This document shows, one piece after another, positions 1 through 19,221 of a stretch of DNA of 32,000 nucleotides. Within the stretch, counting starts at the first letter, position 1; each line of letters opens with the position of its first letter. The notes beneath the pieces were generated by a model, which was given only the letters and a program-made list of their open reading frames with translations, searched no databases and had not been told where the DNA came from. A program made the translations under genes and the position numbers. Origin of the DNA: Telmatocola sphagniphila (GTDB lineage: Bacteria; Planctomycetota; Planctomycetia; Gemmatales; Gemmataceae); the NCBI RefSeq assembly GCF_018398935.1, contig NZ_CP074694.1, positions 2,760,001 through 2,792,000 on the forward strand. Reading direction: 5' to 3'.

Positions 1-1648
1 TGACTTCCCCCTTGTCATCGGCGAGCGCTAACTTGGTACGGTCATTGGAAAACGCGAACGCCGTGAAGTTCTGATCGGCCGGCAGTTTGATCGAAACCGG
101 CTCTCCCCCTTTAATCAGGTCGAGAATTTTGATGACCGGCGGGCTGGCTGAATCCAGCACGGCCAAAGTACCATCGGTGAGCACTCGCACCTGCTTAGCG
201 GTCGTCTCCGGTGCGGGTTGTGGGTTGAATTGAACGCCCACGAGTTGGGTAGGTACTGTTTTGACCTCATCCTTTTTTGGAGGAGGCGTCTCTTTAGGAG
301 GAGCGACCGCAATTTCGTCTTTTTTCTTGGGCGAATCGGATTTCTCCTTCTCGTCCTTGTCGTTTTTGACTAACTCGGTCTTGTCCTTCGCCGGATCCGA
401 TTTCTTGCTGAGATCTTCCGCATTTTTCTTGTTCGTGAAGATAATCAAACTGACCACCAGCATTGCAATCGATACGAGTCCGCCGACGATCAGCGGCAGT
501 CGGGAGCCTTTGCGCTGCAGCGCCTCGCCCGGTTTGGCAGTGAGAGCCGCGAAAGCAGGAACGCTATCAGGGGCCGGTTTGGCCTGGGCCTGATTCCAAC
601 CCACATCGCCGGCCGCAACCGGCTTTGCAACAGCGGTGCTGAGCGCTTTGGTGGTTTCGGTCGACTTCTTCTGCAGCGAATAACCGAGCGTCTGGCTGGC
701 CTCCTTTTCCTGAATGGGGGTGAGGACCGCCGGCTTTTCTTCGGGGAGGATTAAATCGAGCCAGGGGGCTTTATCGAGGGGCTTGCGCGCGTTGATTACC
801 AGATTGGCGAGCAACGCGTTCAATGTCGGATCTTTGAAACTGGCCAGCTTCTTCAGCAGTGGACTTTTCGCGGGTTCCAGGAAATCCGATTCGCGAAAAA
901 GCAGGTTGTCGCCGTTGTCGAAGGCTTTCCAAAGTTCCTCGCCTCCGAGGATGGTTCCGCGCAGGGCCGTCGCTATAACCAGATGCGGGAAGCGATCGAC
1001 ATCGGGACCGAAGATGCGGTTGCTGGCCCGCAAGGGGTGCTGATAATTGGCATGCCCGACTTCACCCGAGTTTTTCCCGGCCAGACTGGGTATCCACATA
1101 CCGTCGTAATCGATCAATTTTAAACCGAGCTTAGCGGGAGTAAATCCCGGAACCAGCAGAACGTTGCCGTGCTGCAAGTCGGCATGGGCGATTTCGGAAT
1201 CTCGCAATCTCTTGGATAACCGGCACCAGACACCCAGGAGTGCCTGGAGAACGTGGGGCTTCTCGAGATTATCCCGAACGAATTCATTCAGGGTGAAGCC
1301 TTCCACCCATTCCATTTTGACGATCGGAAACCATTGGTTGCGTACCCGAATTCCCTCTTCCTGATACTGAAAGCCGACGGTGAATGGCAGATTCTGCTTC
1401 CGGAGATGTTCGTCGATCTGCGCGTATCTCTCGCGCAGGCCGGTGACTTTACGGGTAAAGCACTTGATGGCCCAAACCGAGCCGTCGCCCCCTCGGAGTT
1501 GATACACATCGGCGAAATTGCCCGAACGGGGCACCGGGATTCCCAAGGGACCAGCCGGGACCTCCCCCGCCTTCAGATCAGGGTCTGAAAAGCAGCTGGC
1601 GGGATTCTGGATCGCCTCATTGTAATCCTGGGACAAGGGCCAATTCAT
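1..1648 (-). CDS. Atypical Ser/Thr protein-kinase-like protein (TerY-P triad type) with one TM helix and a beta-propeller-like C-terminal region. It is partial: the C-terminus lies beyond the left window edge.
   Basis: This frame is open from the ATG at 1648 (AAGGA lies 10-14 nt upstream) to position 2, with no stop, which explains its absence from the ORF track. My translation starts MNWPLSQDYNEAIQNPASCF. Kinase-like motifs are VWAIKCF (beta3 Lys), HADLQHGN (catalytic loop, nt 1163-1186) and LIDYDG (DFG equivalent). The TM segment LPLIVGGLVSIAMLVVSLIIF maps to nt 437-499. It is followed by a K/D/E/P-rich linker and then strand-rich repeats (VRVLTDGTLAVLD, FAFSNDRTKLALADDKGEV). Confidence 0.75.
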   Translation of the reverse strand, partial: MNWPLSQDYNEAIQNPASCFSDPDLKAGEVPAGPLGIPVPRSGNFADVYQLRGGDGSVWAIKCFTRKVTGLRERYAQIDEHLRKQNLPFTVGFQYQEEGIRVRNQWFPIVKMEWVEGFTLNEFVRDNLEKPHVLQALLGVWCRLSKRLRDSEIAHADLQHGNVLLVPGFTPAKLGLKLIDYDGMWIPSLAGKNSGEVGHANYQHPLRASNRIFGPDVDRFPHLVIATALRGTILGGEELWKAFDNGDNLLFRESDFLEPAKSPLLKKLASFKDPTLNALLANLVINARKPLDKAPWLDLILPEEKPAVLTPIQEKEASQTLGYSLQKKSTETTKALSTAVAKPVAAGDVGWNQAQAKPAPDSVPAFAALTAKPGEALQRKGSRLPLIVGGLVSIAMLVVSLIIFTNKKNAEDLSKKSDPAKDKTELVKNDKDEKEKSDSPKKKDEIAVAPPKETPPPKKDEVKTVPTQLVGVQFNPQPAPETTAKQVRVLTDGTLAVLDSASPPVIKILDLIKGGEPVSIKLPADQNFTAFAFSNDRTKLALADDKGEV

Positions 1649-1782
1649 TATGGCACATCCTTCGCGGAATGCCGAGTCATGCGAACGCAGATTGCCCGGC
1701 GTTCCGAATCGGGAACACCAGGCAAAATTTGGACGCCGAGCCCGACAGGGCTAATTCGTTGCAGCGGCAGCATTTGAGACAT

Positions 1783-2541
1783 TCACTCTAAAGCATCGAT
1801 AACCAGCAAAGTAATATCGTCATTTTTCAAGGCGGCCGATTCTCGCTGCGTGGTTACCCAGGTCTCGAAAAACATTTCCGGTGTGGGGAGTGAGCGAATA
1901 TCATTAAGATCCAGCCAGGGTTTCTTTCCCGACTCCAACTCCGTCAGGAACCAGCAGGCTAATGCATCCGTCATCAAATAAAATATATCACCAGGCAGGA
2001 AGTTCGCCAAAAGGCGTTTTTCCATCGGAGTCTTTCCCGCACTGCGCGGCTTCGAACTCAACAAGGCCGGCCGTGAGCTAAATTCCGAGGCGGCTTGAAG
2101 TGGAAAAGCCTTTACAAGTTTATCATCTCGAACGTGGAATAAACAGGAATCTCCCACAGCAATCGCCTGATAAGTTCGTTCATTCGGCAGCAGGGTGAAT
2201 TCCAAACCGAGAAATGTGGCAAAGGCCCCATCGTGCAGTTTTTCTTCCGCGAACCAGGAAATATTCTCTGGAGAGGCGGGCACGCTGTTGGCCCAAAGCT
2301 TTTGCAGCGGCGGCAGCCAATCCGCCCAGCCGTTGGGTGCCTGCAATAAAGAATTTTCGATGAAACCGAAGGTCAGCTTGTTGGCCCACTCGCCGGAGTA
2401 AGAACTCTCCGAGGCTCCGTCCGCGATTGCGAATCGGCAGACGGACAGGTCCGCCGCGGCGGAATCCTCATACTCGGCAAGTGAATGTCCCTTCTTTGGC
2501 TGCGAAAAGCTACTCCACCGGAATGGCTTCTGGCTCGTCAT
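1783..2541 (-). CDS. PP2C-family protein phosphatase
   Basis: This is a 252-aa ORF with an ATG start and GAAGG upstream. PP2C-type motifs occur in the expected order: FAIADGASE (metal-binding Asp-Gly), AIAVGDSCLFHV, FYLMTDALACW and the C-terminal NDDITLLVI. Confidence 0.8.
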   Translation of the reverse strand: MTSQKPFRWSSFSQPKKGHSLAEYEDSAAADLSVCRFAIADGASESSYSGEWANKLTFGFIENSLLQAPNGWADWLPPLQKLWANSVPASPENISWFAEEKLHDGAFATFLGLEFTLLPNERTYQAIAVGDSCLFHVRDDKLVKAFPLQAASEFSSRPALLSSKPRSAGKTPMEKRLLANFLPGDIFYLMTDALACWFLTELESGKKPWLDLNDIRSLPTPEMFFETWVTTQRESAALKNDDITLLVIDALE

Positions 2542-2570
2542 CCTTCATCCTTCAAGTTGGAATGCCAACA

Positions 2571-2591
2571 ATTGGCCATTGGCCATTGGCC
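2571..2591. repeat. Perfect heptanucleotide tandem repeat, ATTGGCC x3 (GGCCAAT x3 on the transcribed strand)
   Basis: Read directly from caATTGGCCATTGGCCATTGGCCgc. It lies in the 99-bp gap between the vWA and PP2C genes, 30-50 nt upstream of the PP2C start codon. Confidence 0.9.
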
Positions 2592-2640
2592 GCATAGTGA
2601 GCTAAACGGCGAACCCGGCGGGTGGTTTCGGTAATTCTTT

Positions 2641-3480
2641 TTAGCGAACGTGAGAAGCCACGCGCGTCCCGATTTCCAGAAATCTTACCAGGGCCACCAG
2701 GTCCGCATTGAACATGAAACCCCGGCTGTTCGGATTCACAGCAAAGCCTTCTTCCTCCGCCGCCAATCGCAATTTATCTGGCAGAACGCTCGACATTCGA
2801 AGCAGAACCTTGGCGTAGATGTCGGGAAGGCGGTTATCGTCGGAAGGAAAGGAAACCGGGACCGTTTCCTGCTCCGAAATGTGGGCGTTAAATAGTAAAA
2901 CCTGCCCGTCGGTGCTGGATAGAGCTCGGATTTCCGAAGCGATTTGCATCGGGTTGGCGTCCGAGGGCTGGCCATCGGTGAGATTGATGATCAAAGGCGG
3001 AAAGCATTTTGGAAAACGGAGGAGGAATCCCCCGATGACCTGCTTGGCCAGTTCCAGAGCCCCGTACATGGCCGTCTTGCCCTCGGCCACCGGTTCGAAC
3101 CAGATTGGGAAGCGATAACTCTGCTCCGTAAATCCCCCTGCCCCATCATCCACCAGTCGCTTGCGCTGTTCGACGCGCATCGGCGAGGTTGCCACCGCGC
3201 TGATCGGATGGAGGACCTTATTTTCCGAGACGTTCTTGAGGAGCGGGGTCACTGTATCGCCGTAACCGATCACCCCGATGTGAAAGTAATCGCGGACGCC
3301 ATCCGCTTTGGCGCACTTCAGAACCAGGTTCTGCAAAACGCGATTGATAGCATCCGCGACACCTTCTGATTTTTTCTTCCCTTGCTGACCTCCAAAAGGG
3401 CCTTCCATCGAACTGGATTGATCGATGAGAAATAAAATGCAGGTCGGATTGGTGCGGCTGATTTCAGCTGTATATGGCAT
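2641..3480 (-). CDS. von Willebrand factor A (vWA) domain protein, TerY-like
   Basis: This is a 279-aa ORF. The N-terminal beta-strand plus MIDAS motif reads ILFLIDQSSSM (DxSxS, nt 3409-3423). Later vWA elements are HIGVIGYGDTV and LIINLTDGQPSD. There is no signal peptide or TM segment. Confidence 0.85.
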   Translation of the reverse strand: MPYTAEISRTNPTCILFLIDQSSSMEGPFGGQQGKKKSEGVADAINRVLQNLVLKCAKADGVRDYFHIGVIGYGDTVTPLLKNVSENKVLHPISAVATSPMRVEQRKRLVDDGAGGFTEQSYRFPIWFEPVAEGKTAMYGALELAKQVIGGFLLRFPKCFPPLIINLTDGQPSDANPMQIASEIRALSSTDGQVLLFNAHISEQETVPVSFPSDDNRLPDIYAKVLLRMSSVLPDKLRLAAEEEGFAVNPNSRGFMFNADLVALVRFLEIGTRVASHVR

Positions 3481-3517
3481 GGCTATCCGTGGAATTTAGC
3501 GAGTCGGACCCGAGTAC

Positions 3518-6500
3518 TTACTCTTTAGGCATCGGTTTTATCGTACCGCTGAACGTAATCGATTTCAGCAAGATTCCTTCCGGAGCAATATTCCCGCCCG
3601 GCTGAATCACAATCGGAGTTGGGGGGCTCTTGTCCGCCTGAAGGAGAATCGTTCCGGAGGAGGGGATCGCGGACTTGTTCACAGATCCCTGACAGGAATA
3701 ACTGAGCTTCGTTCCCTTCCGATCCAAGGTGTAGACGATACTGCTCTTGGGTGCCGTACCCGGAAAGGCAATTTCTTCGCCGAGCACCTGGATTCGCAAT
3801 CCCGCAGCCCCGGGAATGGCGGTGATGTGAATCCTCCAGCTGTCCTCTACCAGAAAACGGGTCGTGATTGCCGCATCGTTCTTCGTGAAGCGCACGCCGT
3901 CCGTTTCGAGTCGGGAGCCGCCGGAATTCGTCAGGTTCGCAGAGAAGTTCTTTTCGTTGCCAATCAGCTGAGCATTGGAACGCACCAGGTTTGTCTCGGT
4001 CGCCGTGGCTGGAGTAGTAGTTGTGGTTGCCGGCGTCTTCGGGGCATTTTTAGTGGAATTGGCGTCCAGGCGCCGGGCCAGTTCGGTGGCCTGAGTATTT
4101 TTGCTGAGAAGTTCGATTTTATCGGCGGCCCCGACCTGACCGCTTTCGAGGGCCTTCAAATACCAATGTTTAGCACGCAACCAGCAACTGGCTTTAGCCG
4201 AATCGTTGGCAACCTCGGGTGAAATCCCCAAAGCCCACCAGGCATTTCCCAATTCGATCTGATCTCGAAACTCGGTCGGATTCTTCAGATCCTGGCTGGC
4301 AAGCTTTTTGAGCGATTCCATATCTCCCTGAGAGAGATGAGAAAGAGCTTCGGCATAATTCCGTTTCCGAAGCAGCAGGTATTTTCCGAGAATCGCATGG
4401 GAGGAAGCATCGTTCGAATTCGATTCCAGCTTCTTGCGGGCTTCGACGGCCTGCCCCTCTTCGAGCAGATTGGACTTCAAACGCCCTTTCAATTTTTCAA
4501 TGGAATTGACGACTTCTTCCGCAGTGGAGAATTTCGCCAGCCGTTCGACCACGGGCAGTAATCGCACGATGCAATCGTAACGCTGCGCTTTCTCGGCTTC
4601 ATCGAGAAATGACATGCACCGGACAGTAAACGGAGGCAATAGCCCATTAGGAATGTTTTTGGCGATCTCCTCCAGGATATTGGTCCACTCTTCAAAACTG
4701 TCGATCTGGAACCAGCGCGAATGGCTGGCAACGACTTTGAACGCTTTGTCGAAATCGAGTAATTTCACATACTGTTTGCGCGCCGCGGTGAAGTAGATGA
4801 ACCGAGACTCGGGAGCTTGAGCTACAGATTCCGCGAGTTTCGCAAAGCGGTCCCCACTACTGGTTATCACTTCGGTTTTTTCCGAATCCAGTAACGCGGC
4901 TTCTTTTTGCTTGAACTCCTGCCAGAGCGATTTGAGCGTATTGAAATCCGGCACCGGGAGAGGTTGCGGAGGCAACAGAGCCATCTCCAGATTCCCAACC
5001 GGGGGAACATCGCCTGCCTCGGCAGCTTGCAGCCTAACGATTTGTGTCTTTCCCTCGCTCAGCGCAACTGCAACCAGATCCCCACTGGAAGTCGAGTCGA
5101 GACTATAGGGTTTCGCTTCGAGAGTTGTGGGTGTGCCATCGAATTTTTTCAAAGGGTACGTGGTCGAGATTAAGCCCCGCTCCAGAGAGCAGGCCAATAA
5201 GGATTTATCCGATGGCATCTGACGGAAGGCGGTGAGGGTATCCTTACCGCCGGACAGCGACTCGAGTTTCTGGTCACTTACCGGGTTCCAGACGGTAAGT
5301 TCGTTATCGTCTCCCAGAGAAATCAACTTACCGCCATCATGGGAGAATGCTAGCTGGGTGATACTCTTACCCTTGGCACTCCCCTTCCACTTATTCAGTT
5401 TCTTGTAGGTCTTCGCATCGATGCGCTGGATAGAGCCATCACTCATCCCGACGGCTAAGATCGAATCGTCCGGAGTGACGGCCAAAGATGTTACGGCTCC
5501 CGTGCTAGCCAGATTCACGGATTTAATCGGCTCCTTGTTGCCCAACTTCCAGAAATCCACATCGCCGGCCGTGTTGCCGGTGAAGAGGATTTGTTCGTCG
5601 GAGGAAATGGCGAGTGCGCGAACACCTCCTCGAAGGTTCACCAACCGTTGGGTGGTATCTCCCGATTCGAGTTGAATCACGAAAATCGTCCCGCCATCAG
5701 TCACGGCAATCGATTTCCCGGAAGGGAACATCAACAGGCCCCGAGCGGGACTTTCCAATTTGACGAGTTTTTTAGCATCCGTGAAATCGGGTCGGTGCAA
5801 GAGCACTAACTGATCGTCGCCAGTGGTCACCAGAGCAGAACCATCTTTTCGCAATACTGAAAAGCGCACGGCCTCCTGATGGCCTTTGAGGATACCTGAC
5901 TGAAAAACCGGTTTTTTGACAGTGTTGGCGAGGAGTCCTTTCGGGTCTTCCTTCTTGATTTCTTTAGGGGGAACCTCAACGGGCTTGGCAATATCCGAAG
6001 CCGCATCCGTTTTAACCGGTGGGGTGATGCCGGACTTGGGTGTCAAAACCTCTTTTTCTGAGTCCTTTTTTTCTAACTGAGTCGCGACTTTTGTTTCTTC
6101 GACGCCCTTCCCGGCGATTTGCGTGAAGTAGTAAGCAGCGCCTCCACCGCCCGCCAACAGCAGGATTCCGAAAACCCACTTCAAAGCCCCGCCCTGTTTT
6201 CGGGGGCTTTTTCGCTTCTTCATCGTGAATTCATCGAACCCGGCGGCAACCACCAAACTCGGTTTGACCGGCGATGCGGGGGGAGTTGCTGCAGGAAGAG
6301 GCGTGGCTGACACGTGCCCTGGAGATACGGGTATCTCCTGTTTCCACCAGTCCACCTTCTTGGCTTTGGGCTGCGCGGGTTCCACGGGGGCATCATCCCA
6401 CCAAGCCGACGGATCGTTGGTGGCCCGAGTCGATTCATCCGCCAGATCCAGGGGTTCCACATCCGAACCTTCGTCTTCCGAGGCGGCTTTAGTGGAGTTG

Positions 6501-6778
6501 GATTGATGCAGGTACCCTTTTGGATTATTTTCGTACTGTTCCCGCTTGGCCGGATTGCTCAGAATATCTCGGGCTTCCTGAATTTCCTTAACGATTTTGG
6601 CATACAGCTGGGCATGCGGGCCCTTTTTATGTTGGCTGATTTGGAGAATCCGTAGCATGCAGGCGTCTGAAATTGCTTCCGGATCTCGTTCGCTGGACGA
6701 AATTCCCAGAAGGGCATACAGCGAAGGCGGACGCTGTACTTTCGAAATACTCAACCAGTCGTGATAAGGATCGAACAC
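3518..6778 (-). CDS. Large single-pass membrane protein with an N-terminal J-like domain (no HPD), a TM helix, WD40 beta-propeller repeats, a Sel1/TPR-like helical region and a C-terminal beta-rich domain
   Basis: This is a 1086-aa ORF with a GTG start at 6778. The N-terminus FDPYHDWLSISKVQRPPSLYALLGIS...ARDILSNPAKREQYEN resembles a J domain, but QHKKGPH sits where HPD is expected. The TM segment ALKWVFGILLLAGGGGAAYYFTQI maps to about nt 6116-6187. WD40-like repeats follow (GHQEAVRFSVLRKDGSALVTTGDDQLVLL, VTSLAVTPDDSILAVGMSDGSIQ, ITQLAFSHDGGKLISLGDDNELTVW). Sel1-like elements follow them (GNAWWALG, AKHWYLKALESG), then a poly-Thr linker and a beta-rich tail. Confidence 0.8.
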   Translation of the reverse strand: MFDPYHDWLSISKVQRPPSLYALLGISSSERDPEAISDACMLRILQISQHKKGPHAQLYAKIVKEIQEARDILSNPAKREQYENNPKGYLHQSNSTKAASEDEGSDVEPLDLADESTRATNDPSAWWDDAPVEPAQPKAKKVDWWKQEIPVSPGHVSATPLPAATPPASPVKPSLVVAAGFDEFTMKKRKSPRKQGGALKWVFGILLLAGGGGAAYYFTQIAGKGVEETKVATQLEKKDSEKEVLTPKSGITPPVKTDAASDIAKPVEVPPKEIKKEDPKGLLANTVKKPVFQSGILKGHQEAVRFSVLRKDGSALVTTGDDQLVLLHRPDFTDAKKLVKLESPARGLLMFPSGKSIAVTDGGTIFVIQLESGDTTQRLVNLRGGVRALAISSDEQILFTGNTAGDVDFWKLGNKEPIKSVNLASTGAVTSLAVTPDDSILAVGMSDGSIQRIDAKTYKKLNKWKGSAKGKSITQLAFSHDGGKLISLGDDNELTVWNPVSDQKLESLSGGKDTLTAFRQMPSDKSLLACSLERGLISTTYPLKKFDGTPTTLEAKPYSLDSTSSGDLVAVALSEGKTQIVRLQAAEAGDVPPVGNLEMALLPPQPLPVPDFNTLKSLWQEFKQKEAALLDSEKTEVITSSGDRFAKLAESVAQAPESRFIYFTAARKQYVKLLDFDKAFKVVASHSRWFQIDSFEEWTNILEEIAKNIPNGLLPPFTVRCMSFLDEAEKAQRYDCIVRLLPVVERLAKFSTAEEVVNSIEKLKGRLKSNLLEEGQAVEARKKLESNSNDASSHAILGKYLLLRKRNYAEALSHLSQGDMESLKKLASQDLKNPTEFRDQIELGNAWWALGISPEVANDSAKASCWLRAKHWYLKALESGQVGAADKIELLSKNTQATELARRLDANSTKNAPKTPATTTTTPATATETNLVRSNAQLIGNEKNFSANLTNSGGSRLETDGVRFTKNDAAITTRFLVEDSWRIHITAIPGAAGLRIQVLGEEIAFPGTAPKSSIVYTLDRKGTKLSYSCQGSVNKSAIPSSGTILLQADKSPPTPIVIQPGGNIAPEGILLKSITFSGTIKPMPKE

Positions 6779-7004
6779 CCTTCGTCCCCTGAAAAACTAA
6801 GCGTAATTCGCAACATTTTAAGGATAACTCAAGCCAGGCTTCGCGCAAAGCGAATTGATGGGAAGTTTCCGGGAAGGCCCGCGCATCCTACTTTTTTACC
6901 CAATTGCTGCTTTAATTAGTAGACGCGGATAAAGCGGAATTCGTTCTCGAAATCGGCACAGATAAGGCTAAAGCGAGATTTTTTCGTACCCAGGCGAATC
7001 CCCA

Positions 7005-7661
7005 ATGCTCGACGAGATGTTTACATTCGGTATTTTCAGTTACGTTTCCCTATTTGTCATGGTCGATCCCATTGGAAATCTTCCCATTTTTCTGGGAATG
7101 ACCAATAAGTTGAATCCCCATCAGCAAAATGGCGTAGCCCTGAGAGCCACTCTGATTTCGTATCTGATTCTGATAGCCATTGCTTTCACCGGACAGGCTA
7201 TCTTTCGCTTCTTCGACATTCGCATCGAAGAACTCAAAATCGTTGGCGGGATTATCTTCTTCATCGTCGGCTACGAAATGTTGCATGCCCGCCTCTCCCG
7301 CACCAATATCGACGAGGAAAGCACCCACGACTACGCCCACGACATCGCTCTAACCCCCTTGGGAATCCCCATGCTTTGCGGCCCGGGGGCGATGGCCAAC
7401 ACAATGGTTTTGTGGAATCTCGCCGACTCGATTCCCAAAAAAATGACGGTCATCATTACCCTGACGCTCGTTATGGTCACCACCCTGATCATCTTGCTGG
7501 GCGGTAAAAGACTGACGAAATTTCTCGGCGAGAGTGGCAACAAGGTCATGCTGCGGCTCATGGGTCTGATAACCATGGTGATAGCCGTGCACTTTTTCTT
7601 CGATGGGCTCAAGCCTATTCTCCGGGATATCCTGAACATCCCTGAAAAGGCTGCTGGTTGA
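7005..7661 (+). CDS. MarC family (UPF0056) integral membrane protein
   Basis: This 218-aa polytopic ORF has the family-typical N-terminus FVMVDPIGNLPIFLGMT and about six hydrophobic segments. Confidence 0.85.
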   Translation: MLDEMFTFGIFSYVSLFVMVDPIGNLPIFLGMTNKLNPHQQNGVALRATLISYLILIAIAFTGQAIFRFFDIRIEELKIVGGIIFFIVGYEMLHARLSRTNIDEESTHDYAHDIALTPLGIPMLCGPGAMANTMVLWNLADSIPKKMTVIITLTLVMVTTLIILLGGKRLTKFLGESGNKVMLRLMGLITMVIAVHFFFDGLKPILRDILNIPEKAAG

Positions 7662-10010: not shown

Positions 10011-12299
10011 GTGGCAACGGTTCCTCAGGAAGAGGGTCGATCCTTCGCTTACCTGGAATCGACCCCGTTTCGTAAATTCCTGGGCGTTATATACGCCTGT
10101 TTCGACGTCTTCCTCTTCTGCGGTCTGATAATACTCCTTGGCCTTTTCGTCGATTTTCTGACGAATCAGGGGAAGATACCCCATCTGTCCGATCTGCCGC
10201 TGGCGGATCAAAAAAGCATCCTGACGGAATGGAAAAACTACGACGCCGACTATCGACGGAAGATCGTCCAGGAGGCCGGCTTCGACTTTCCTTCGCCCGA
10301 TTCGGTCTCGGATCCGGAGGCTTCCCGGAAAAATGCACTTCTTTATCGCCTGATAGGCAAAGAAGTTGCCCCGCTCGTGTTGGAAGCCTCTGCGGACGAT
10401 TTGCAGAAATGGGCCCGACAGAATGGACCGATCAACGACCCTTACTGGTCCGCCCTGCTGGAAAACGAACTTCGCTGGCAAATACTCTTGCGGACTCGCC
10501 TTCAGGAAAAAGTGTCCAACTCAGCTGCTGAGTCTATCCATGTAGTCCAGAAAACGAGCGACAATCCGACGATTCAAAATCCCGTCGGACCGTTGCCTTC
10601 CGCCGGTGTAATCTCTCTTTTAGCTCGCAATACACAGCATTGGTCGTTTCCACTACTTGCTCTGAAAACTCGTTTTTCCCCCTGGTTAACTAGCGGCAGC
10701 GAACTGAGTCTGAACACCCGTTATCTCCTTACGCTGTTTGCCTGCGGACTTCTTTTAACCGCGCTGAGATTCGGCGTTTCGATTCTGATCAATCGCCACG
10801 CCGCCCGACTGACATTGCATGCGGTAACGAACCTGCGGCGAGGGATATATCACCATTGTCATCGGTTGGGAAATCTTTCGCTGGTGGGCGATGGGACCAG
10901 CGGGGCGAGTACCCTATTTATTCGGGAAGTGGAGGCGGTACAGGATGAATTTTTCGTCCGTTACGCCAATCAATATCGTTACACTCTCTATCTGATTGCC
11001 TTGCCCATTCTGGCGCTGGCGGCCCAATTTTGGCTAACCCTGGCTGCCCTGTTGATCGGGCTGGTGGCCTGGATGTTCCTGAATCTGCGTCTGCGGAGTC
11101 TGGCGAAAAAAACCAAAGAAAGCAGCCGACGTGCGAAAGCGTGGTTGAGCCGCTTGACGGAAAGTTTGAAAATCATGCGCCTGGTGCGGTCTTACAGCAT
11201 GCAGACCTTCAACCAGTCCCGACTGGAGCGTCAGCTAGCCGACTACGAACGCGAGCAACTGCAACGCTACCGTCAGGAAGGTTCCATACGGCCGACCGTG
11301 TTTCTCTTTTTGTGCAGTTTGACTTTCCTTGTTCTGTTCCTCGCCGGGGTCATTTCACTCAATCAACCGATCGGAGCCTTCGCGCTCACTGTAGTGGTCT
11401 CATCGCTGCTCTGTCTCTACTATCCGCTCCGCAGCTTCGTCGGCCAACGGAAGTATCGCCGCAAGGCCGATTTGGCCGAGCAGGTTTTGCAGAAGTACTT
11501 CGATCGCCAGTCCAAAGTGAAAGATATCGTGGATGGCGAATTTCTGGATGTGGTGCGGAAAAACATCCGCTTCGAGGATGTTTCTTTATCCGATCAGGAG
11601 GAGCGTAAGATTCTCCGCCATTTGGAACTGACGATTCCTGCCGGTTCGCGTGTGGGTATCGTAGGGCCGGATGAGATCCAGAAGAAATCCCTGCTTTACC
11701 TCATCATGCGCTTGAACGATCCGAAGGCCGGCAGCGTTCGCATGGATGGCAAGGACTTGAAATGGGTTTCGAAAGATTCACTCCGAATGCAGGTGGGCGT
11801 GATCCTGCAGGACCATCTGGTCTTCAATGATACCGTCGCGAATAACATTGGCTGCGGCGATCCGAACGTCACCCTACCGCAGATCATCGAAGCGGGGAAA
11901 CTGGCTCACGCCCATCAGTTCATTCAAAAGCTCCCGCACGGCTACGAAACCGTGATCGGCGAATTTGGACACTCGCTCTCCATCGGTCAGTTGTATAGGA
12001 TCGCCCTCGCACGCTGCATCCTGCGTGATCCTTCGGTGCTTTTGATTGAGGAACCGGTGATCCCCCTGGATGATGAGACGAAAGAACTGCTGGATGATTC
12101 GGAAGATCGCTTCCTTCAGAAGCGAACAGTGATCTACCTTCCGCATCGCATCTCGACGTTGAAATCCTGCGATATGCTGCACTTAGTGAACGAGGGGCGG
12201 ATAGAAGCTTCCGCAAAGCATCGGGATCTGCTTCACGAAAGTCCTCTTTACAAACATCTGTACTACATGGAATTCAATCAGTTCGGCGAATCGAATTGA
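10011..12299 (+). CDS. ABC exporter-like fused TMD-NBD protein (MsbA/ABCB-type fold) with degenerate nucleotide-binding motifs
   Basis: This is a 762-aa ORF with a GTG start. The C-terminal NBD aligns by eye with MsbA: the Q-loop (VGVILQD), NDTVANNI, D-loop and H-loop (LPHRIST) are all present. Walker A is GPDEIQKKS (nt 11664-11690), the signature is LSIGQ (11976-11990) and Walker B is LLIEEP (12036-12056). About 190 aa are inserted between TM1 and the next TM segment. Confidence 0.8.
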   Translation: MATVPQEEGRSFAYLESTPFRKFLGVIYACFDVFLFCGLIILLGLFVDFLTNQGKIPHLSDLPLADQKSILTEWKNYDADYRRKIVQEAGFDFPSPDSVSDPEASRKNALLYRLIGKEVAPLVLEASADDLQKWARQNGPINDPYWSALLENELRWQILLRTRLQEKVSNSAAESIHVVQKTSDNPTIQNPVGPLPSAGVISLLARNTQHWSFPLLALKTRFSPWLTSGSELSLNTRYLLTLFACGLLLTALRFGVSILINRHAARLTLHAVTNLRRGIYHHCHRLGNLSLVGDGTSGASTLFIREVEAVQDEFFVRYANQYRYTLYLIALPILALAAQFWLTLAALLIGLVAWMFLNLRLRSLAKKTKESSRRAKAWLSRLTESLKIMRLVRSYSMQTFNQSRLERQLADYEREQLQRYRQEGSIRPTVFLFLCSLTFLVLFLAGVISLNQPIGAFALTVVVSSLLCLYYPLRSFVGQRKYRRKADLAEQVLQKYFDRQSKVKDIVDGEFLDVVRKNIRFEDVSLSDQEERKILRHLELTIPAGSRVGIVGPDEIQKKSLLYLIMRLNDPKAGSVRMDGKDLKWVSKDSLRMQVGVILQDHLVFNDTVANNIGCGDPNVTLPQIIEAGKLAHAHQFIQKLPHGYETVIGEFGHSLSIGQLYRIALARCILRDPSVLLIEEPVIPLDDETKELLDDSEDRFLQKRTVIYLPHRISTLKSCDMLHLVNEGRIEASAKHRDLLHESPLYKHLYYMEFNQFGESN

Positions 12300-12308
12300 T
12301 TCGCCGAA
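12282..12308. terminator. Perfect 11-bp stem / 5-nt loop hairpin between convergent genes (possible bidirectional terminator, no U-tract)
   Basis: The sequence is TTCGGCGAATC-gaatt-GATTCGCCGAA. It straddles the TGA stop (12297-12299) of the ABC gene and ends 7 nt before the stop of the convergent thioredoxin-TPR gene. Confidence 0.4.
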
Positions 12309-12314
12309 CGCAAT

Positions 12315-13472
12315 TTACGGTTTCTGGAATTGAACGGGAACCGTGGGCGTCTTTCGCTTCATCTGAGCCAACTTCATCGACGCGTTTTGAGCCTGCAGCG
12401 TGTTGGGAGCGAGCTTCATGATCTTCTCGTAACACAAGGCTGCCTCGTCGATTTTCCCCTTTTGGATCCAGGCCTCCGCCAGTCGCGTATACATCTGGGC
12501 GGTCTGATCCGCCAATTCCTCGGCGGCCTTCGCCAGTCGATCGGGATTCGCCTGAATATCCCGAAGGATCAAAGTGGCTTCCCGCGCTTCCGGCGAGTCG
12601 CTGAAGGTTCCCAGAATCGTTTCGCAGGATTCCACGCAGCGGTGGAATTTCTCCTTGCGATATTCCTCTTTGGCCATGGCGAGAAGTTCGTTGGCCCGCT
12701 GGTCGCGAGCCGCTTCGCGAATCGTCGATTTGGCAGTTAAACTGGCAATCTGCTTCGAGGAATCTTCCGCGGCTTTCGTGCCCGGGAACTTTCGAACCAC
12801 TTCGGTGAGCTGTTCCATGGCCTGGGTCGCCTGACCCCGATCGATCAGATCCTTGACCTGAATCCGCTTCTGATTGGCCTGCTGTTCGAGTTCGTTTAGC
12901 AGTTGTTTGGATTTACCTTGAACCGGCCGATCCTTGCCGTCCTCGCAGATCGACTTCAAAAGCGTAATCGCTTTAGCATAGTCGTTGGCAGAAATCGCTT
13001 TGGAAGCTTCGTTGAAATCGCGCGCCATCCAGTCGGGAGTGGCCACGGCCATGGCCCGCTGCAGATGCTCGTTCAGCCGGGAGGCTTCCATGTACCCTTC
13101 GATAACGCCCAGGATCTTACCATCGCTCCCGGCCATAATCAGGGTGGGATAGGCCTGAATCTTCAAAGCCTGAGTTAAAGCCGGTTCCCGATTGGCATCG
13201 ACTTTCACGGGAATGAATCGATCGTTCAGCAAATCGACGATGCCAGAGTCTTTAAAGGTCGTCTGGTCGAGTCGACGACAGTGAAAGCATTCCTCGGTAC
13301 CGAAGTCGAGAAAGAGCGGTTTGCCCTTTTCGGCCGCTTCCTTGCGGGCTGCGTTATAATCCTTACGCCATTGGACGGTCTCTCCGGCAAGCGCGGGCCT
13401 TGCCGAGACAACCATTACGAAAACCACGCCAATCAGCGTGTTCCGCATTCGAAAGCACGGAATCGTCTGCAT
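12315..13472 (-). CDS. Secreted thioredoxin-fold protein with a C-terminal TPR/helical repeat region
   Basis: The thioredoxin-like core is KPLFLDFGTEECFHCRRLD (CxxC), followed by IPVKVDAN and AYPTLIMAGSDGKILG. The signal peptide is MRNTLIGVVFVMVVSARPALA. The C-terminal half is helical and TPR-like (AEAWIQKGKIDEAALCYEKIMKLAP). I place the start at the first ATG (13472), which has GGAGAGAG upstream. The longest ORF begins at a TTG at 13502. Confidence 0.75.
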   Translation of the reverse strand: MQTIPCFRMRNTLIGVVFVMVVSARPALAGETVQWRKDYNAARKEAAEKGKPLFLDFGTEECFHCRRLDQTTFKDSGIVDLLNDRFIPVKVDANREPALTQALKIQAYPTLIMAGSDGKILGVIEGYMEASRLNEHLQRAMAVATPDWMARDFNEASKAISANDYAKAITLLKSICEDGKDRPVQGKSKQLLNELEQQANQKRIQVKDLIDRGQATQAMEQLTEVVRKFPGTKAAEDSSKQIASLTAKSTIREAARDQRANELLAMAKEEYRKEKFHRCVESCETILGTFSDSPEAREATLILRDIQANPDRLAKAAEELADQTAQMYTRLAEAWIQKGKIDEAALCYEKIMKLAPNTLQAQNASMKLAQMKRKTPTVPVQFQKP

Positions 13473-13498
13473 GGAAAAACTCTCTCCAGGAGTAACGC

Positions 13499-14398
13499 TC
13501 AAGCTCGCGGATGGGCCTTTTGATAACTTTCCTGCACTTTTTGCTTCGACAGGTGCGTATAAATCTGGGTCGTCATCAGGCGCTTGTGTCCCAGAAGTTC
13601 CTGCACGCTGCGAATTTCCGCTCCGGCATTCAGCAAATGTGTGGCGAAAGTATGCCGGAGCGAGTGCGGGCTGAGATTCGCATCCAGCCCGGCGCGGTTC
13701 ACATATTTTCCGACAATCCGCCCGACGCTACGGACCGTCAATCGGGTTCCTAATTTGTTCAGGAATACCGCATCGCTTTTCTTTTTCGTCTGGGCTAACA
13801 GTTGGTCGCGCTCGACGAGCCAGGCTCTCAGGGCTTCCACGGAGGGCGCTCCCAAAAGCGCGTAGCGTTCGCGCTTGCCTTTCCCCCGAACCGTGACGAT
13901 CCCTTCTTCCAGCTTCAGGTCATTGAGACTGAGGCCCACCAGTTCGCTGACGCGTACTCCCGCCGAGTAGAATACCTCGAGAATCGCGCGATCCCGGTTG
14001 GGAAACCGGTCGTTCTCCTCGGGCTGAACCAGTAGAGAATCCACCTCCTGATCGCTCAGAAAGCCGGGTAATTTTTTATCTACTTTGGGGCTTCGCAGCC
14101 CGAGCGTCGGATTTGTCTGAATCACGCCGTTTCGGCACAGATACCTGAAAAAAGATCGCACGGCCGCAATTCGTCGAGCCGCCGTGGATTTCGAGTATCC
14201 TTTTTCGTGGAGCCAGGCGACGTAACGACGCAGTAACCGGGGAGAGACCGCTTCGATCGCGTAGTCCGTCGAACCCAGAATTTCCTGCCAGCACTCGTGG
14301 GCCTGGGTCAGATCTTCCCGATAAGATTTGACCGTGTGGGTAGAGGAATTTCTTTCCAGCGACAAGTGTCGCAGAAAATCCGCCAGCAATTTATCCAT
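13499..14398 (-). CDS. xerC: Tyrosine site-specific recombinase, XerC/XerD family
   Basis: The C-terminal catalytic motifs are HSLRHTFATHLL and LLGHKRLMTTQIYTH (R..HxxR..Y). The N-terminal SAM-like domain reads FLRHLSLERNSSTHTVKSYREDL. I place the start at MDKLLADF (ATG at 14398); the ORF-track start at 14464 adds 22 aa. I cannot decide between XerC and XerD by eye. Confidence 0.85.
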   Translation of the reverse strand: MDKLLADFLRHLSLERNSSTHTVKSYREDLTQAHECWQEILGSTDYAIEAVSPRLLRRYVAWLHEKGYSKSTAARRIAAVRSFFRYLCRNGVIQTNPTLGLRSPKVDKKLPGFLSDQEVDSLLVQPEENDRFPNRDRAILEVFYSAGVRVSELVGLSLNDLKLEEGIVTVRGKGKRERYALLGAPSVEALRAWLVERDQLLAQTKKKSDAVFLNKLGTRLTVRSVGRIVGKYVNRAGLDANLSPHSLRHTFATHLLNAGAEIRSVQELLGHKRLMTTQIYTHLSKQKVQESYQKAHPRA

Positions 14399-14509
14399 GG
14401 TGTCGATCTCAAGAAGAACGCATAAGGGCCGATACTCGGCACTTCCCTCGGTTGAAGATCTCAAGAGCGACGCGATACGTCACCGTTCAGACTTCAACCG
14501 GAGAGATTC

Positions 14510-14824
14510 TTAATCCCGCACACCAACTTCGCGGATCGTTGAAGGCGTTTGAGCCTGCAAACGAGCCCGCTCGGTTAGAACGGCCGCATCGAACCAGGTT
14601 AAGCTGACATCCGGGTCGGCCGCCTGATTGCGAATGCTGTCTATCAACTTCTCTCGACTGTCTTCGTCGTAAACGAAAACGAAGCGTTCCTTGCCTTTGA
14701 TGAGAGCCAGTACACTGATTTCCTGTCGCACGGAAAGCCTCATCAGCGGAGTCAATGGAGATGATCCTTCACACATCCCAAACATCGGCTCTATCTGGGA
14801 ATTCGCTGCGATTTCTTTGAGCAA
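14510..14824 (-). CDS. Hypothetical small protein (91-104 aa depending on start)
   Basis: The ORF lies upstream of xerC on the same strand. It has a TTG start at 14824 or an ATG at 14785 (MFGMCEG...). I recognise no motifs. Only its intergenic position and length support it. Confidence 0.4.
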   Translation of the reverse strand: MLKEIAANSQIEPMFGMCEGSSPLTPLMRLSVRQEISVLALIKGKERFVFVYDEDSREKLIDSIRNQAADPDVSLTWFDAAVLTERARLQAQTPSTIREVGVRD

Positions 14825-14951
14825 AATCGCGGATCGGGAATGTGAAGTTCAATCCCAACCGGCAAGATCGATGCAGCTTTACAGAAATTGCTCTTCCGCT
14901 ACGCGGATTGGCGTGGTAAAAATTGCAAATTATCATTCCGTAACCGGCAGG

Positions 14952-15722
14952 ATGCCAACCGTGAAAACCGCGATCTTAATCCCCGCGCGTTTCGCCTCCA
15001 CCCGACTCCCCGCGAAAGCCTTACTCCGGGAAACGGGCAAATACCTCATCGAACACGTTTATGAACAGGCTAGCCAGACCACCTGCGCCAGCGATGTGAT
15101 TGTCGCTACCGATGACGAGCGGATCCTCCGGGCGGTTGCTTCCTTCGGAGGTCGGGTTGTACTGACGGCAACGAATCATCAATCTGGAACAGATCGCATC
15201 GCCGAGGTGGCTCAGTCGCTCGACTCCGACATCCTCATTAACGTCCAGGGGGATGAACCGACTATCGATCCCAAAGCTATCGACTTGCTGGATTCTCTGA
15301 TGCGTACACACCCGGAAGCGGAAATGGCCACGCTGGCCGTCCCCTTTGATCGACAGGAAAACTGGCAAAGCCCGAACATGGTGAAGGTGGTTACCGATGC
15401 CTGGGGGCGGGCTATCTACTTCAGCCGCAGTCCGATCCCCTACTGCCGGGATGGAACGCCCGATTTTTCCTCGGGAAAATACTTACAGCATTTGGGAATT
15501 TATGCCTACCGCCGCGAGTCGCTGTTAAAACTGGCCAGCCTTCCGCCCCATCCTCTCGAAGATATCGAAAAGCTGGAACAACTTCGGGCAATAGCTCAAG
15601 GCTGGGCGATTCAAGTAGGTGTCGTGGCGCATGCCGGCCGAGGTATCGACACCCCGGAGGATTATGCCCTGTTCGTAAACAGCTATCGGCAGCAGATTCT
15701 GCAGTCGCGACGCGCTGCCTGA
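14952..15722 (+). CDS. kdsB: 3-deoxy-manno-octulosonate cytidylyltransferase (CMP-KDO synthetase)
   Basis: The sequence MPTVKTAILIPARFASTRLPAKAL, VIVATDDERI, NVQGDEPTIDP and HLGIYAYRR is typical KdsB. The start is placed at ATG 14952. The track ORF from 14691 is an unsupported 5' extension that overlaps the divergent small ORF. Confidence 0.9.
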   Translation: MPTVKTAILIPARFASTRLPAKALLRETGKYLIEHVYEQASQTTCASDVIVATDDERILRAVASFGGRVVLTATNHQSGTDRIAEVAQSLDSDILINVQGDEPTIDPKAIDLLDSLMRTHPEAEMATLAVPFDRQENWQSPNMVKVVTDAWGRAIYFSRSPIPYCRDGTPDFSSGKYLQHLGIYAYRRESLLKLASLPPHPLEDIEKLEQLRAIAQGWAIQVGVVAHAGRGIDTPEDYALFVNSYRQQILQSRRAA

Positions 15723-15755
15723 GCGAATGCGGAACTTTGCGTAGAAGTTATAAAT

Positions 15756-17015
15756 TTATTCCGCATGGGAGCGGGCAAACAGCTTCCGAATCGAAGAGAA
15801 CAAGGTCCGGTTGGCAGGAAGTTCGTTGCAAGGCTTTTCCTGAGGCGGTTTAGAGTTCGCCAACTTCGGAGACAACGGCCTCGTTTCCGCTCGCGGGAGA
15901 CTAACGCCGAGCGATCGCCAGTGAGCCGCCGGCAGGTGCGGGTAGACGAACGAAACCACATCCATCGCCGAATTGAACCGGGCATTCGGATCGACGGCCC
16001 CCAGCTTACCAATCAACTTATCGATGAACGGCGGCAATTCTGGTCGGACCTTCGAGGGTGCAGGGATGTCACTCGTCTGGCGAGCTGCCATGGATTGAAG
16101 CGCGAGACCGGGGAAGGCCGCTTGTCCGGTCAAAGCGGAGTAGAGTGTCGAGCCCAGGCTATAAAGGTCGCTTCGGGCATCCATGTCGACCATGGCCGTC
16201 TGCTCTGGCGGGATATGAGCAATTTCCAGAGCGTACTCTTCCAGATTGATGCGTTTGGTATTCTGCTGCCAGGGGTCATCCAGCAGGTTCGTCAGGCCCA
16301 GATCGAGCAATTTGGTTCGGTGGTTGGGATAGATGGCGATATTCTGAGGCTTAATGTCGCGATGCAATAACCCGACCGCATGAGCCTGAGCCAGACCTAA
16401 AGCCACCTGCCCGGCAATTTCCACGGATTGATTGACGGAGAGAGTTCCTTCCCGAATCAGGAGATCATCCAGCGTGGGAGCTTCCACCAGTTCGGAAACC
16501 ACATAGTAGGTCCCGGAAAGCATTCCCAGATCGAGAATCTGTGCGATCGAGGAATGGTGTATACCCGCCGCTGTTTTAACTTCGTTTAGGAAAGTTGTAA
16601 ATGCTTCCGATTCACTGACGCGATTACTGGGAATGACTTTAACGCTGACTTTCTGATGGGAATCGATTTCTTCGGCGAGAAAGACAATGCCGACCCGATC
16701 CTGTCGGATTCCTTCCAGAATTTTGTACCGCCCCAGCAGGAAGCCGCCGCTTCGTCCGTTCAGAAGTTGCATGGCCTGATATTTGGTGAGCAATTTCAAC
16801 CGAACCAGATGCGTGGCCAGATGAAGTGGTTCAAGTGTCAGAAGTTGCTTGAACGAAAAATTGGCGAATGCCCTGCCAAGTATTGGCAGAGGGATCAAGC
16901 CGCTGCGTTGCAGCGCATTCAGAAAAGCGGTTTCCGGCAGTCGAATGGTGGGCTGGTGCGGTTCCAAGGCATTTCTCCCGTTCGATAATCCCCCGTCGGG
17001 GATCGACGAATGCAT
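15756..17015 (-). CDS. Ser/Thr protein kinase homologue with a degenerate glycine-rich loop and an N-terminal helical pre-kinase domain
   Basis: HRDIKPQN, LLDLGL (DFG equivalent), PPEQ (APE equivalent), VSVKVI (beta3 Lys) and FLNEVK (alphaC Glu) are all present. The GxGxxG position reads LEGIRQDRVGIV. The N-terminal LLTKYQAMQLLNGRSGGFLLGRY is shared with the neighbouring kinase. There is no TM segment. Confidence 0.85.
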   Translation of the reverse strand: MHSSIPDGGLSNGRNALEPHQPTIRLPETAFLNALQRSGLIPLPILGRAFANFSFKQLLTLEPLHLATHLVRLKLLTKYQAMQLLNGRSGGFLLGRYKILEGIRQDRVGIVFLAEEIDSHQKVSVKVIPSNRVSESEAFTTFLNEVKTAAGIHHSSIAQILDLGMLSGTYYVVSELVEAPTLDDLLIREGTLSVNQSVEIAGQVALGLAQAHAVGLLHRDIKPQNIAIYPNHRTKLLDLGLTNLLDDPWQQNTKRINLEEYALEIAHIPPEQTAMVDMDARSDLYSLGSTLYSALTGQAAFPGLALQSMAARQTSDIPAPSKVRPELPPFIDKLIGKLGAVDPNARFNSAMDVVSFVYPHLPAAHWRSLGVSLPRAETRPLSPKLANSKPPQEKPCNELPANRTLFSSIRKLFARSHAE

Positions 17016-19206: not shown

Positions 19207-19221
19207 GTTTCTGTGCACCAA

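Follow-up and report, generated by a model that had tools for sequence, protein, structure and literature searches.

A 32,000-nucleotide stretch of the genome of Telmatocola sphagniphila (Planctomycetota, Gemmataceae; contig NZ_CP074694.1, positions 2,760,001 to 2,792,000), referred to below as the window, contains a cluster of four genes that is probably a variant of the TerY-phosphorylation (TerY-P) system. TerY-P is a triad of the vWA protein TerY, a PP2C-type phosphatase and an atypical Ser/Thr kinase (STK). In the variant proposed here, a receptor kinase would replace the kinase forms that end in an OB fold or a zinc ribbon, and a J-like receptor encoded upstream would be the fixed partner of one TerY clade; defence or another biological conflict is the most likely role. 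The genes of the cluster are listed below; the first of them matched KIH39_10940 in a protein search.

3518..6778, minus strand: gene 1, J-like/transmembrane/WD40 single-pass membrane protein, 1086 amino acids (aa), GTG start, NCBI KIH39_10940
2641..3480, minus strand: gene 2, TerY, soluble vWA protein, 279 aa, PADLOC TerY PDLC02224
1783..2541, minus strand: gene 3, PP2C-type phosphatase, 252 aa, PADLOC PP2C PDLC02222
ATG at 1648, running past the left window edge, minus strand: gene 4, kinase, 549 aa visible in the window

The list of open reading frames (ORFs) and their translations confirmed the layout given in the initial annotation of the window, i.e., four consecutive genes on the minus strand, separated by gaps of exactly 37, 99 and 134 bp, with the kinase gene running past the window edge. 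The complete gene 4 was found on the 128-kb source contig (L001), which was obtained by an exact-match look-up of the vWA protein and on which a 20.8-kb source locus was examined. There, gene 4 occupies positions 11833-16104 and encodes 1423 aa. A scan restricted to consensus matches revealed no terminator-like hairpin in the three intergenic gaps, and the four-gene module is probably a co-transcribed unit.

Judging by their sequences, genes 2-4 are the TerY-P triad: a TerY vWA protein with its metal ion-dependent adhesion site (MIDAS), a PP2C phosphatase and an atypical Ser/Thr kinase. TerY matched the PADLOC profile PDLC02224 over its full length (6.9e-96, 319 bits, profile positions 1-274 of 277), and so did the phosphatase with PDLC02222 (1.3e-33, 114 bits, profile positions 8-238 of 242). 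The kinase matched the STK_OB profile PDLC02223 (6.6e-73, 244.5 bits) at profile positions 1-294 of 562 only, which correspond to the kinase half. The OB half (positions 295-562) was unmatched by gene 4, which has no OB fold. The Pfam scores of the triad were weak (VWA, 23.9 bits; PP2C_2, 16.4 bits; Pkinase, 16.7 bits), and that of the kinase was below the Pkinase cut-off of 31.7 bits. The three folds anticipated in the initial annotation were recovered in both cases, weakly in Pfam and very strongly against the TerY-P models of PADLOC.

The assignment of the triad to TerY-P, based on the PADLOC matches, also agrees with the intact state of the catalytic and MIDAS residues. In TerY, the MIDAS motifs were located as follows.

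3409-3423, minus strand: MIDAS motif DQSSS of TerY
2971-2982, minus strand: MIDAS motif LTDG of TerY

For comparison, homologues were taken from 76 related genomic loci. The DxSxS, T and D residues of the MIDAS are at least 90% conserved in 73 aligned TerY homologues, and all of them are kept in the window protein. The metal-binding motifs of the phosphatase (ED, DGA, GD, DA and DD.T) are at least 90% conserved in 68 aligned homologues and all are retained in gene 3, which carries ADGAS, VGDSCLF, LMTDAL and DDITLLVI. The kinase motifs H-x-D-x4-N and D-Y-D are invariant in 69 aligned homologues (L001-L077) and present in gene 4. A motif check found every vWA, PP2C and kinase motif of the earlier description where it had been placed.

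The position of the β3 'VAIK' lysine is occupied by Arg in 48 of the 69 TerY-P kinases and by Lys in 20, gene 4 among them. Since Arg prevails at this position, the TerY-P kinase family is truly atypical.

The order TerY-PP2C-kinase is kept in nearly all of the 76 loci, which belong to Planctomycetota, Rhodothermales, Chloroflexota, Proteobacteria and Thermoplasmata. Several of the Dehalococcoidia (Chloroflexota) loci (L037, L042, L043, L046-L048, L056, L063 and L073) have TerY genes in tandem, two TerY-P-type kinases or both. The Thermoplasmata loci L029, L032, L033 and L044 encode the kinase on the strand opposite to TerY and PP2C.

The name of the triad goes back to a comparative study of Ter loci (Anantharaman et al. 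2012, as recounted in PMC11090510). In the initial annotation, it was said to have no experimentally defined function, which is outdated. The stand-alone form, which lacks Ter genes and has a kinase with an OB fold, is a validated anti-phage system protecting against T7-like phages (Gao et al. 2020, as described in PMC7699616 and PMC11090510), and a TerY-P variant protects P. aeruginosa against Autographiviridae, most of the infected cells surviving (bioRxiv 10.1101/2022.08.12.503731). In CoCoNuT systems, a TerY-P version was described in which the kinase ends in a zinc ribbon (PMC11090510). No mechanism, trigger or effector of TerY-P and no J-like/WD40 partner of it were found in the literature searched. 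By homology with the validated systems, the biological role of the Telmatocola cluster is most likely defence or conflict.

Gene 4 has the predicted topology of a single-pass receptor kinase, with a cytoplasmic kinase domain, a transmembrane helix and about three periplasmic β-propellers.

749..1648, minus strand: kinase domain of gene 4, residues 1-300 (VWAIK at 1463-1477, HADLQHGN at 1163-1186, IDYDG at 1100-1114)
437..499, minus strand: transmembrane helix of gene 4, residues 384-404, sequence LPLIVGGLVSIAMLVVSLIIF
1..436, minus strand: start of the predicted periplasmic tail of gene 4, which extends beyond the window to residue 1423, about three β-propellers

The single transmembrane helix and the propeller-like tail had been noticed from the part of the gene lying in the window, and both were borne out in the 1423-aa protein, where the helix is followed by about 1000 residues matching many WD40/β-propeller families of Pfam. 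The tail was modelled via a metagenomic fragment (P0325, JGI, 555 aa), which is 99% identical and corresponds to residues 869-1423. Its AlphaFold2 (AF2) model, of moderate confidence (pLDDT 75), is all-β and consists of two propeller bodies with a disordered stretch between them. Because residues 869-1423 are predicted to form two propeller bodies, the whole tail probably holds about three. Apart from this fragment, no close homologue of the tail was found in the protein search. The nearest relatives of the kinase domain share 52-67% identity with it (70% in one partial match), come mostly from Gemmataceae and are only 270-580 aa long. The 1423-aa protein itself was not among the matches of the kinase-domain search, of which the top one had 62% identity.

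The membrane anchor of the kinase is no special feature of the cluster: 42 of 65 sampled TerY-P kinases have a transmembrane segment after the kinase domain, and 25 of the 65 have at least 100 residues beyond it. Membrane anchoring is common among TerY-P kinases and thus not peculiar to gene 4. The tails of the planctomycete representatives carry various domains.

WD40: L004, L068, L072, L005 and L062
FGE-sulfatase: L003 and L024
PA14: L007
LamG lectin domain: L062

All four assessable kinases from loci in which a J-like gene is linked to TerY have WD40 tails. Among Planctomycetota, membrane-spanning Ser/Thr kinases with WD40, TPR or FGE-sulfatase arrays predicted to be periplasmic have been described (PMC11032199).

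Gene 1 is a second receptor-like protein built, in its predicted topology, on the plan of the kinase: a head formed by a degenerate J domain and a linker with WW motifs, followed by an ectodomain of WD40, TPR-like and lectin-like parts.

6524..6778, minus strand: degenerate J domain, residues 1-85, N-terminal, predicted cytoplasmic, HPD replaced by H-K-K
6185..6523, minus strand: Pro-rich linker, residues 86-198, predicted cytoplasmic, two WW motifs
6392-6409 and 6338-6355, minus strand: WW motifs SAWWDD and VDWWKQ in the linker of gene 1 (residues 124-147)
6125..6184, minus strand: transmembrane helix of gene 1, residues 199-218, from a hydropathy scan, preceded by KKRKSPRKQ
5009..5899, minus strand: WD40 β-propeller, residues ~294-590, predicted periplasmic, Pfam WD40/β-propeller families with the best E value of 5e-24
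4043..4978, minus strand: TPR-like α-solenoid, residues 601-912, AF2 pLDDT 91, helices only, Foldseek neighbours in the PDB being TPR proteins
3521..3991, minus strand: C-terminal ConA/L-type-lectin-like β-sandwich, residues ~930-1086, from the AF2 model and Foldseek

Residues 1-85 scored 22.6 bits against Pfam DnaJ, under the cut-off of 27.8. A profile of 26 J-like homologues matched J-domains only in the PDB (best E value 1.1e-6). The HPD tripeptide of J domains, located between helices II and III, is needed to stimulate Hsp70. In an alignment to DNAJB9 and DnaJ, its position is H-K-K in gene 1 and H-x-x or other in the relatives, P and D being absent. Canonical activation of Hsp70 by gene 1 is unlikely because HPD is replaced by H-K-K, and a function as a canonical DnaJ co-chaperone was rejected for the lack of HPD. 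The basic stretch KKRKSPRKQ precedes the transmembrane helix, and the N-terminus is therefore predicted to be cytoplasmic. The WD40 propeller aligns with the short-form homologues described below. The J-like, transmembrane and WD40 parts given in the initial annotation were all found, its 'Sel1-like' part is probably better described as a TPR-like α-solenoid, and the C-terminal β-sandwich had been missed. For the latter, Foldseek returned ERGIC-53, VIP36 and legume lectins from the PDB with a probability of 1.0 and modest TM-scores of 0.4-0.5. No Pfam family matched residues 568-1086 at E ≤ 1.

A search with the whole gene 1 protein gave WD40 look-alikes only, the WD40 words saturating the candidates, and the real full-length family was found with the non-WD40 C-terminus as the query. 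The exhaustive HMMER search with residues 601-1086 yielded 3725 proteins (E ≤ 1e-3); the matches listed were mainly to the TPR-like part. About a dozen of these relatives, each of ~1000 aa, have the whole architecture of gene 1. For the metagenome scan, an alignment of 15 family sequences had no stretch that was conserved enough, and a five-sequence alignment was used instead. Its patterns fell in the J-like domain, so that most of the loci returned contained other J-like proteins.

The J-like N-domain is a general planctomycete module, occurring in proteins with WD40 and LamG, with FGE-sulfatase or with no recognisable tail. It is linked to kinase signalling in that it is found at the head of proteins that share their tail domains with planctomycete receptor kinases (WD40, LamG and FGE-sulfatase). 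L090 (1573-3189) encodes a 539-aa protein in which the J-like N-domain and a canonical Pkinase domain are directly fused.

The neighbourhood survey indicates that gene 1 is a real conserved partner of the triad and not a chance neighbour, and the co-occurrence expected in the initial annotation was found. A J-like/transmembrane/WD40 gene is located immediately 5′ of TerY in seven of the seven DNA-verified loci with a TerY at least 63% identical to that of the window, namely, the window itself, L002, L005, L062, L097, L103 and L126 (the last without PP2C and kinase). The gaps between the stop of the J-like gene and the start of TerY are 37 (window), 11, 239, 12, 11, 11 and 5 bp, respectively, i.e., 5-37 bp in six of the loci. 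The J-like gene is of a short form (~620-670 aa, stopping just past the propeller) in L002, L005, L062, L097 and L103 and of a long form, like that of the window, in L126 (1028 aa). An eighth contig (P0182 context) encodes proteins of 1030, 279 and 258 aa and a WD40 protein of 1064 aa, which is the same layout by gene lengths only. Six of the linked TerY proteins form one clade in the neighbour-joining tree, from which L062 was left out, its TerY being frameshifted. Planctomycete TerY-P loci outside the J-linked clade have no upstream J-like gene. None of the genes flanking the cluster in Telmatocola recurs beside the other J-linked loci, and because the flanks differ between loci, the J-like/TerY pair appears to persist independently of its surroundings.

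The locus L126 (3362-8918) suggests that the J-like protein and TerY constitute a core. It contains a long J-like gene and a TerY gene (64% identical) 5 bp apart, no PP2C and no kinase; the gene that follows TerY encodes a WD40 protein of 543 aa, whose hydrophobic N-terminal segment could be a signal peptide.

A relation between gene 1 and the triad is also indicated by their modules. The TPR-like domain of gene 1 was detected inside the tail of the L007 TerY-P kinase (E value 7e-41), in an intact ORF of 1225 aa (2295-5972), where it is followed by PA14. In L005 (15437-16806), the same domain makes up the distal part of a frameshifted kinase tail, and the short J protein of this locus lacks it. 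The number of WW motifs is one to four in all nine TerY-linked J proteins, including that of the window, zero or one in four unlinked relatives and zero in four proteins of unknown context. The WW motifs of the gene 1 linker could be docking motifs.

The module may work as follows. The ectodomains of the kinase and of gene 1 would sense, together or in parallel, a periplasmic or envelope cue. The kinase would then phosphorylate either TerY or the J-like protein, the latter in its cytoplasmic part, and this phosphorylation would switch the MIDAS-dependent docking of TerY at the membrane scaffold. The PP2C phosphatase would reset the switch. Trans-envelope sensing is plausible from the predicted topology; the substrate, the cue and the physiological output of the module are what we infer.

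The kinase-less state of L126 and the TPR-like and lectin modules common to both receptors suggest that the J-like protein and TerY constitute the core and that both ectodomains operate in the same compartment. More tentatively, the whole could be a periplasm-sensing module in which the two receptors jointly read an extracytoplasmic cue, for example phage adsorption or injection, or foreign macromolecules brought into the enlarged planctomycete periplasm. TerY would assemble on the WW-bearing tail of the J-like protein, this pair being the ancestral core, and the kinase and phosphatase would be its regulators. We regard this elaboration as possible and do not count on it.

The serious alternative to a defence module is housekeeping signalling at the envelope or in the periplasm. 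The cluster would then belong to the large set of receptor Ser/Thr kinases found in Gemmataceae, and the vWA adaptor and the J-like co-receptor would regulate some part of envelope biology, for example periplasmic uptake, surface polysaccharide handling or cell-cell contact. We consider this possible but not probable, and a number of observations speak for it, some of them also against our interpretation. The neighbours of the cluster are housekeeping genes, encoding MarC, NAD kinase, ABC transporters and a thioredoxin-like protein on one side and a pseudopilin-like protein, a cupin, a nitroreductase, RNase H and TsaD on the other. In the flanks of L002, L005, L062, L097, L103 and L126 (39 ORFs), the PADLOC search gave one clear DarG (1.7e-134) and a few weak hits, so that these six related loci form no consistent defence island. 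In the TerY scan, no close relative was found in viral contigs. The placement of gene 1 beside MarC recurs in L121. The ectodomains (WD40, TPR-like, LamG, FGE-sulfatase and PA14) are the palette of ordinary planctomycete Ser/Thr kinases (PMC11032199), and two canonical kinase genes of this type are present in the same window. In addition, the defence role of the cluster is extrapolated from the proteobacterial OB-type systems, and phosphorylation, physical contact between the products and co-transcription are putative.

On the other hand, the triad proteins are high-scoring matches to models of a validated defence system, full-length except for the kinase, which matches in its kinase half. TerY-P is patchily distributed across distant phyla with its gene order conserved, as is typical of mobile defence cassettes, and one metagenome-assembled genome has at least two copies on a single contig (L005 and L068). 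The combination of a conserved signalling core with hypervariable sensor tails is likewise characteristic of immune sensors. An argument from a 'defence island' could not be made, as housekeeping genes make up most of the flanks; no gene adjoining the cluster was recognised as a nuclease or another effector. Genomic context does not support a defence role, nor does it exclude one, and we retain defence or conflict as the most likely role of the TerY-P variant.

A second possibility is that gene 1 is an unrelated resident neighbour of a complete three-gene TerY-P system. Validated TerY-P systems do work with three genes, J-like/WD40 genes are numerous in Gemmataceae, and the J-like N-domain heads many different proteins. 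The linkage is not obligatory, since long-form relatives of gene 1 without an adjoining triad were found (P0183, P0188, P0177 and L079), and loci with a relative of gene 1 but no TerY-P include L079, L121, L122 and L125. In L121 (216-4282), a MarC gene (59% identical) divergently adjoins a long-form gene 1 relative (~25% identical), as in the window (3518-7661), and the relative is followed by an unrelated CTP_transf_3 gene and no TerY-P. It is therefore conceivable that in Telmatocola the triad was inserted next to a gene already in place. It should be added that the trees, built by neighbour joining, are crude and have no support values. Nevertheless, we consider this explanation improbable in view of the conservation data: in the seven DNA-verified loci, with different flanks, the J-like/WD40 gene lies just upstream of TerY of a single clade, as it does by gene lengths on the eighth contig, and planctomycete TerY-P outside the clade has no such gene. 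Moreover, L126 retains the J-like/TerY pair after loss of PP2C and kinase, the TPR-like module is common to J proteins and TerY-P kinase tails, and the WW motifs track with linkage.

Finally, a role as an accessory of a tellurite/Ter stress-response system, to which the name TerY and the comparative-genomic study that first described the triad (Anantharaman et al. 2012, in PMC11090510) would point, is very improbable and was rejected, as neither the scanned genes of the 32-kb window nor those called in the 20.8-kb source locus (L001) gave a Pfam hit to a terD, terC, terZ or terB family, and stand-alone triads act without Ter genes according to PMC11090510. The initial annotation was right about the absence of Ter genes, as far as the genes scanned are concerned, and wrong in taking it as a distinguishing feature, since the validated stand-alone system normally has no such genes.

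Other genes of the window were also annotated, as follows.

13499-14464, minus strand: tyrosine recombinase, Phage_integrase 2.3e-46
14691-15722: CTP_transf_3 gene, beside the XerC/D-type recombinase
15756-17015, minus strand: canonical Pkinase-family Ser/Thr kinase
17221-19221, minus strand: canonical Pkinase-family Ser/Thr kinase

No tRNA gene was found anywhere in the window, and the recombinase may for this reason be a housekeeping enzyme of the Xer type. The two kinase genes are adjacent to each other, at a distance of ~9 kb from the cluster, and fit the kinase-rich genomes of Gemmataceae.

With regard to novelty, the triad is a validated system that can be called by standard defence-annotation tools, and membrane-anchored TerY-P kinases are common. 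Three features appear to be new: a J-like receptor conserved as a partner, modules exchanged between this protein and the tail of the kinase, and a locus reduced to the J-like/TerY pair. A conserved extra partner is likely to touch TerY, and the J-like domain with its WW linker is a candidate docking site for the MIDAS of the vWA protein. The natural variants, with propellers in place of the OB fold, mobile TPR-like and lectin modules and a locus without kinase and phosphatase, suggest which parts are core and which are sensor. It seems that a defence-type cassette has taken on the receptor architecture typical of the expanded signalling repertoire of planctomycetes, which blurs the boundary between immunity and envelope signalling. 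If the module were to serve ordinary signalling, the annotation of a recurrent four-gene unit in Gemmataceae would still be useful. Nothing here is categorically new, and the function is deduced by homology; the variant yields concrete, testable hypotheses on how TerY-P may work.

Compared with the stand-alone TerY-P systems (Gao 2020/PADLOC), the Telmatocola cluster is alike in the three proteins, their order and strand and the absence of Ter genes. It differs in that its kinase ends not in an OB fold but in a transmembrane helix and about 1000 aa of predicted periplasmic β-propellers, and in that a J-like/transmembrane/WD40/TPR-like/lectin-like gene is added upstream. It also belongs to a planctomycete, and its surroundings do not form a defence island. 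The TerY proteins of the proteobacterial OB-type systems are only ~46-48% identical to that of the window.

The zinc-ribbon form shares the vWA-PP2C-STK triad with the window, seen as a phosphorylation switch that can be attached to other machinery. Its partners are cytoplasmic nucleases, helicases and GTPases, whereas those in the window are membrane receptor-like proteins.

With DnaJ/Hsp40 co-chaperones, gene 1 has in common residues 1-85, which are homologous to J domains. Unlike these co-chaperones, gene 1 has no HPD and no G/F, zinc-finger or client-binding domains, and its family consists of planctomycete single-pass membrane proteins.

The planctomycete membrane Ser/Thr kinases (PMC11032199) have the same predicted topology as the kinase of the cluster, that is, a cytoplasmic kinase domain, one transmembrane helix and periplasmic repeats, and they draw on the same palette of accessory domains. 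They are members of the canonical Pkinase family, whereas the window kinase belongs to the TerY-P family and is encoded together with a dedicated vWA protein and PP2C phosphatase.

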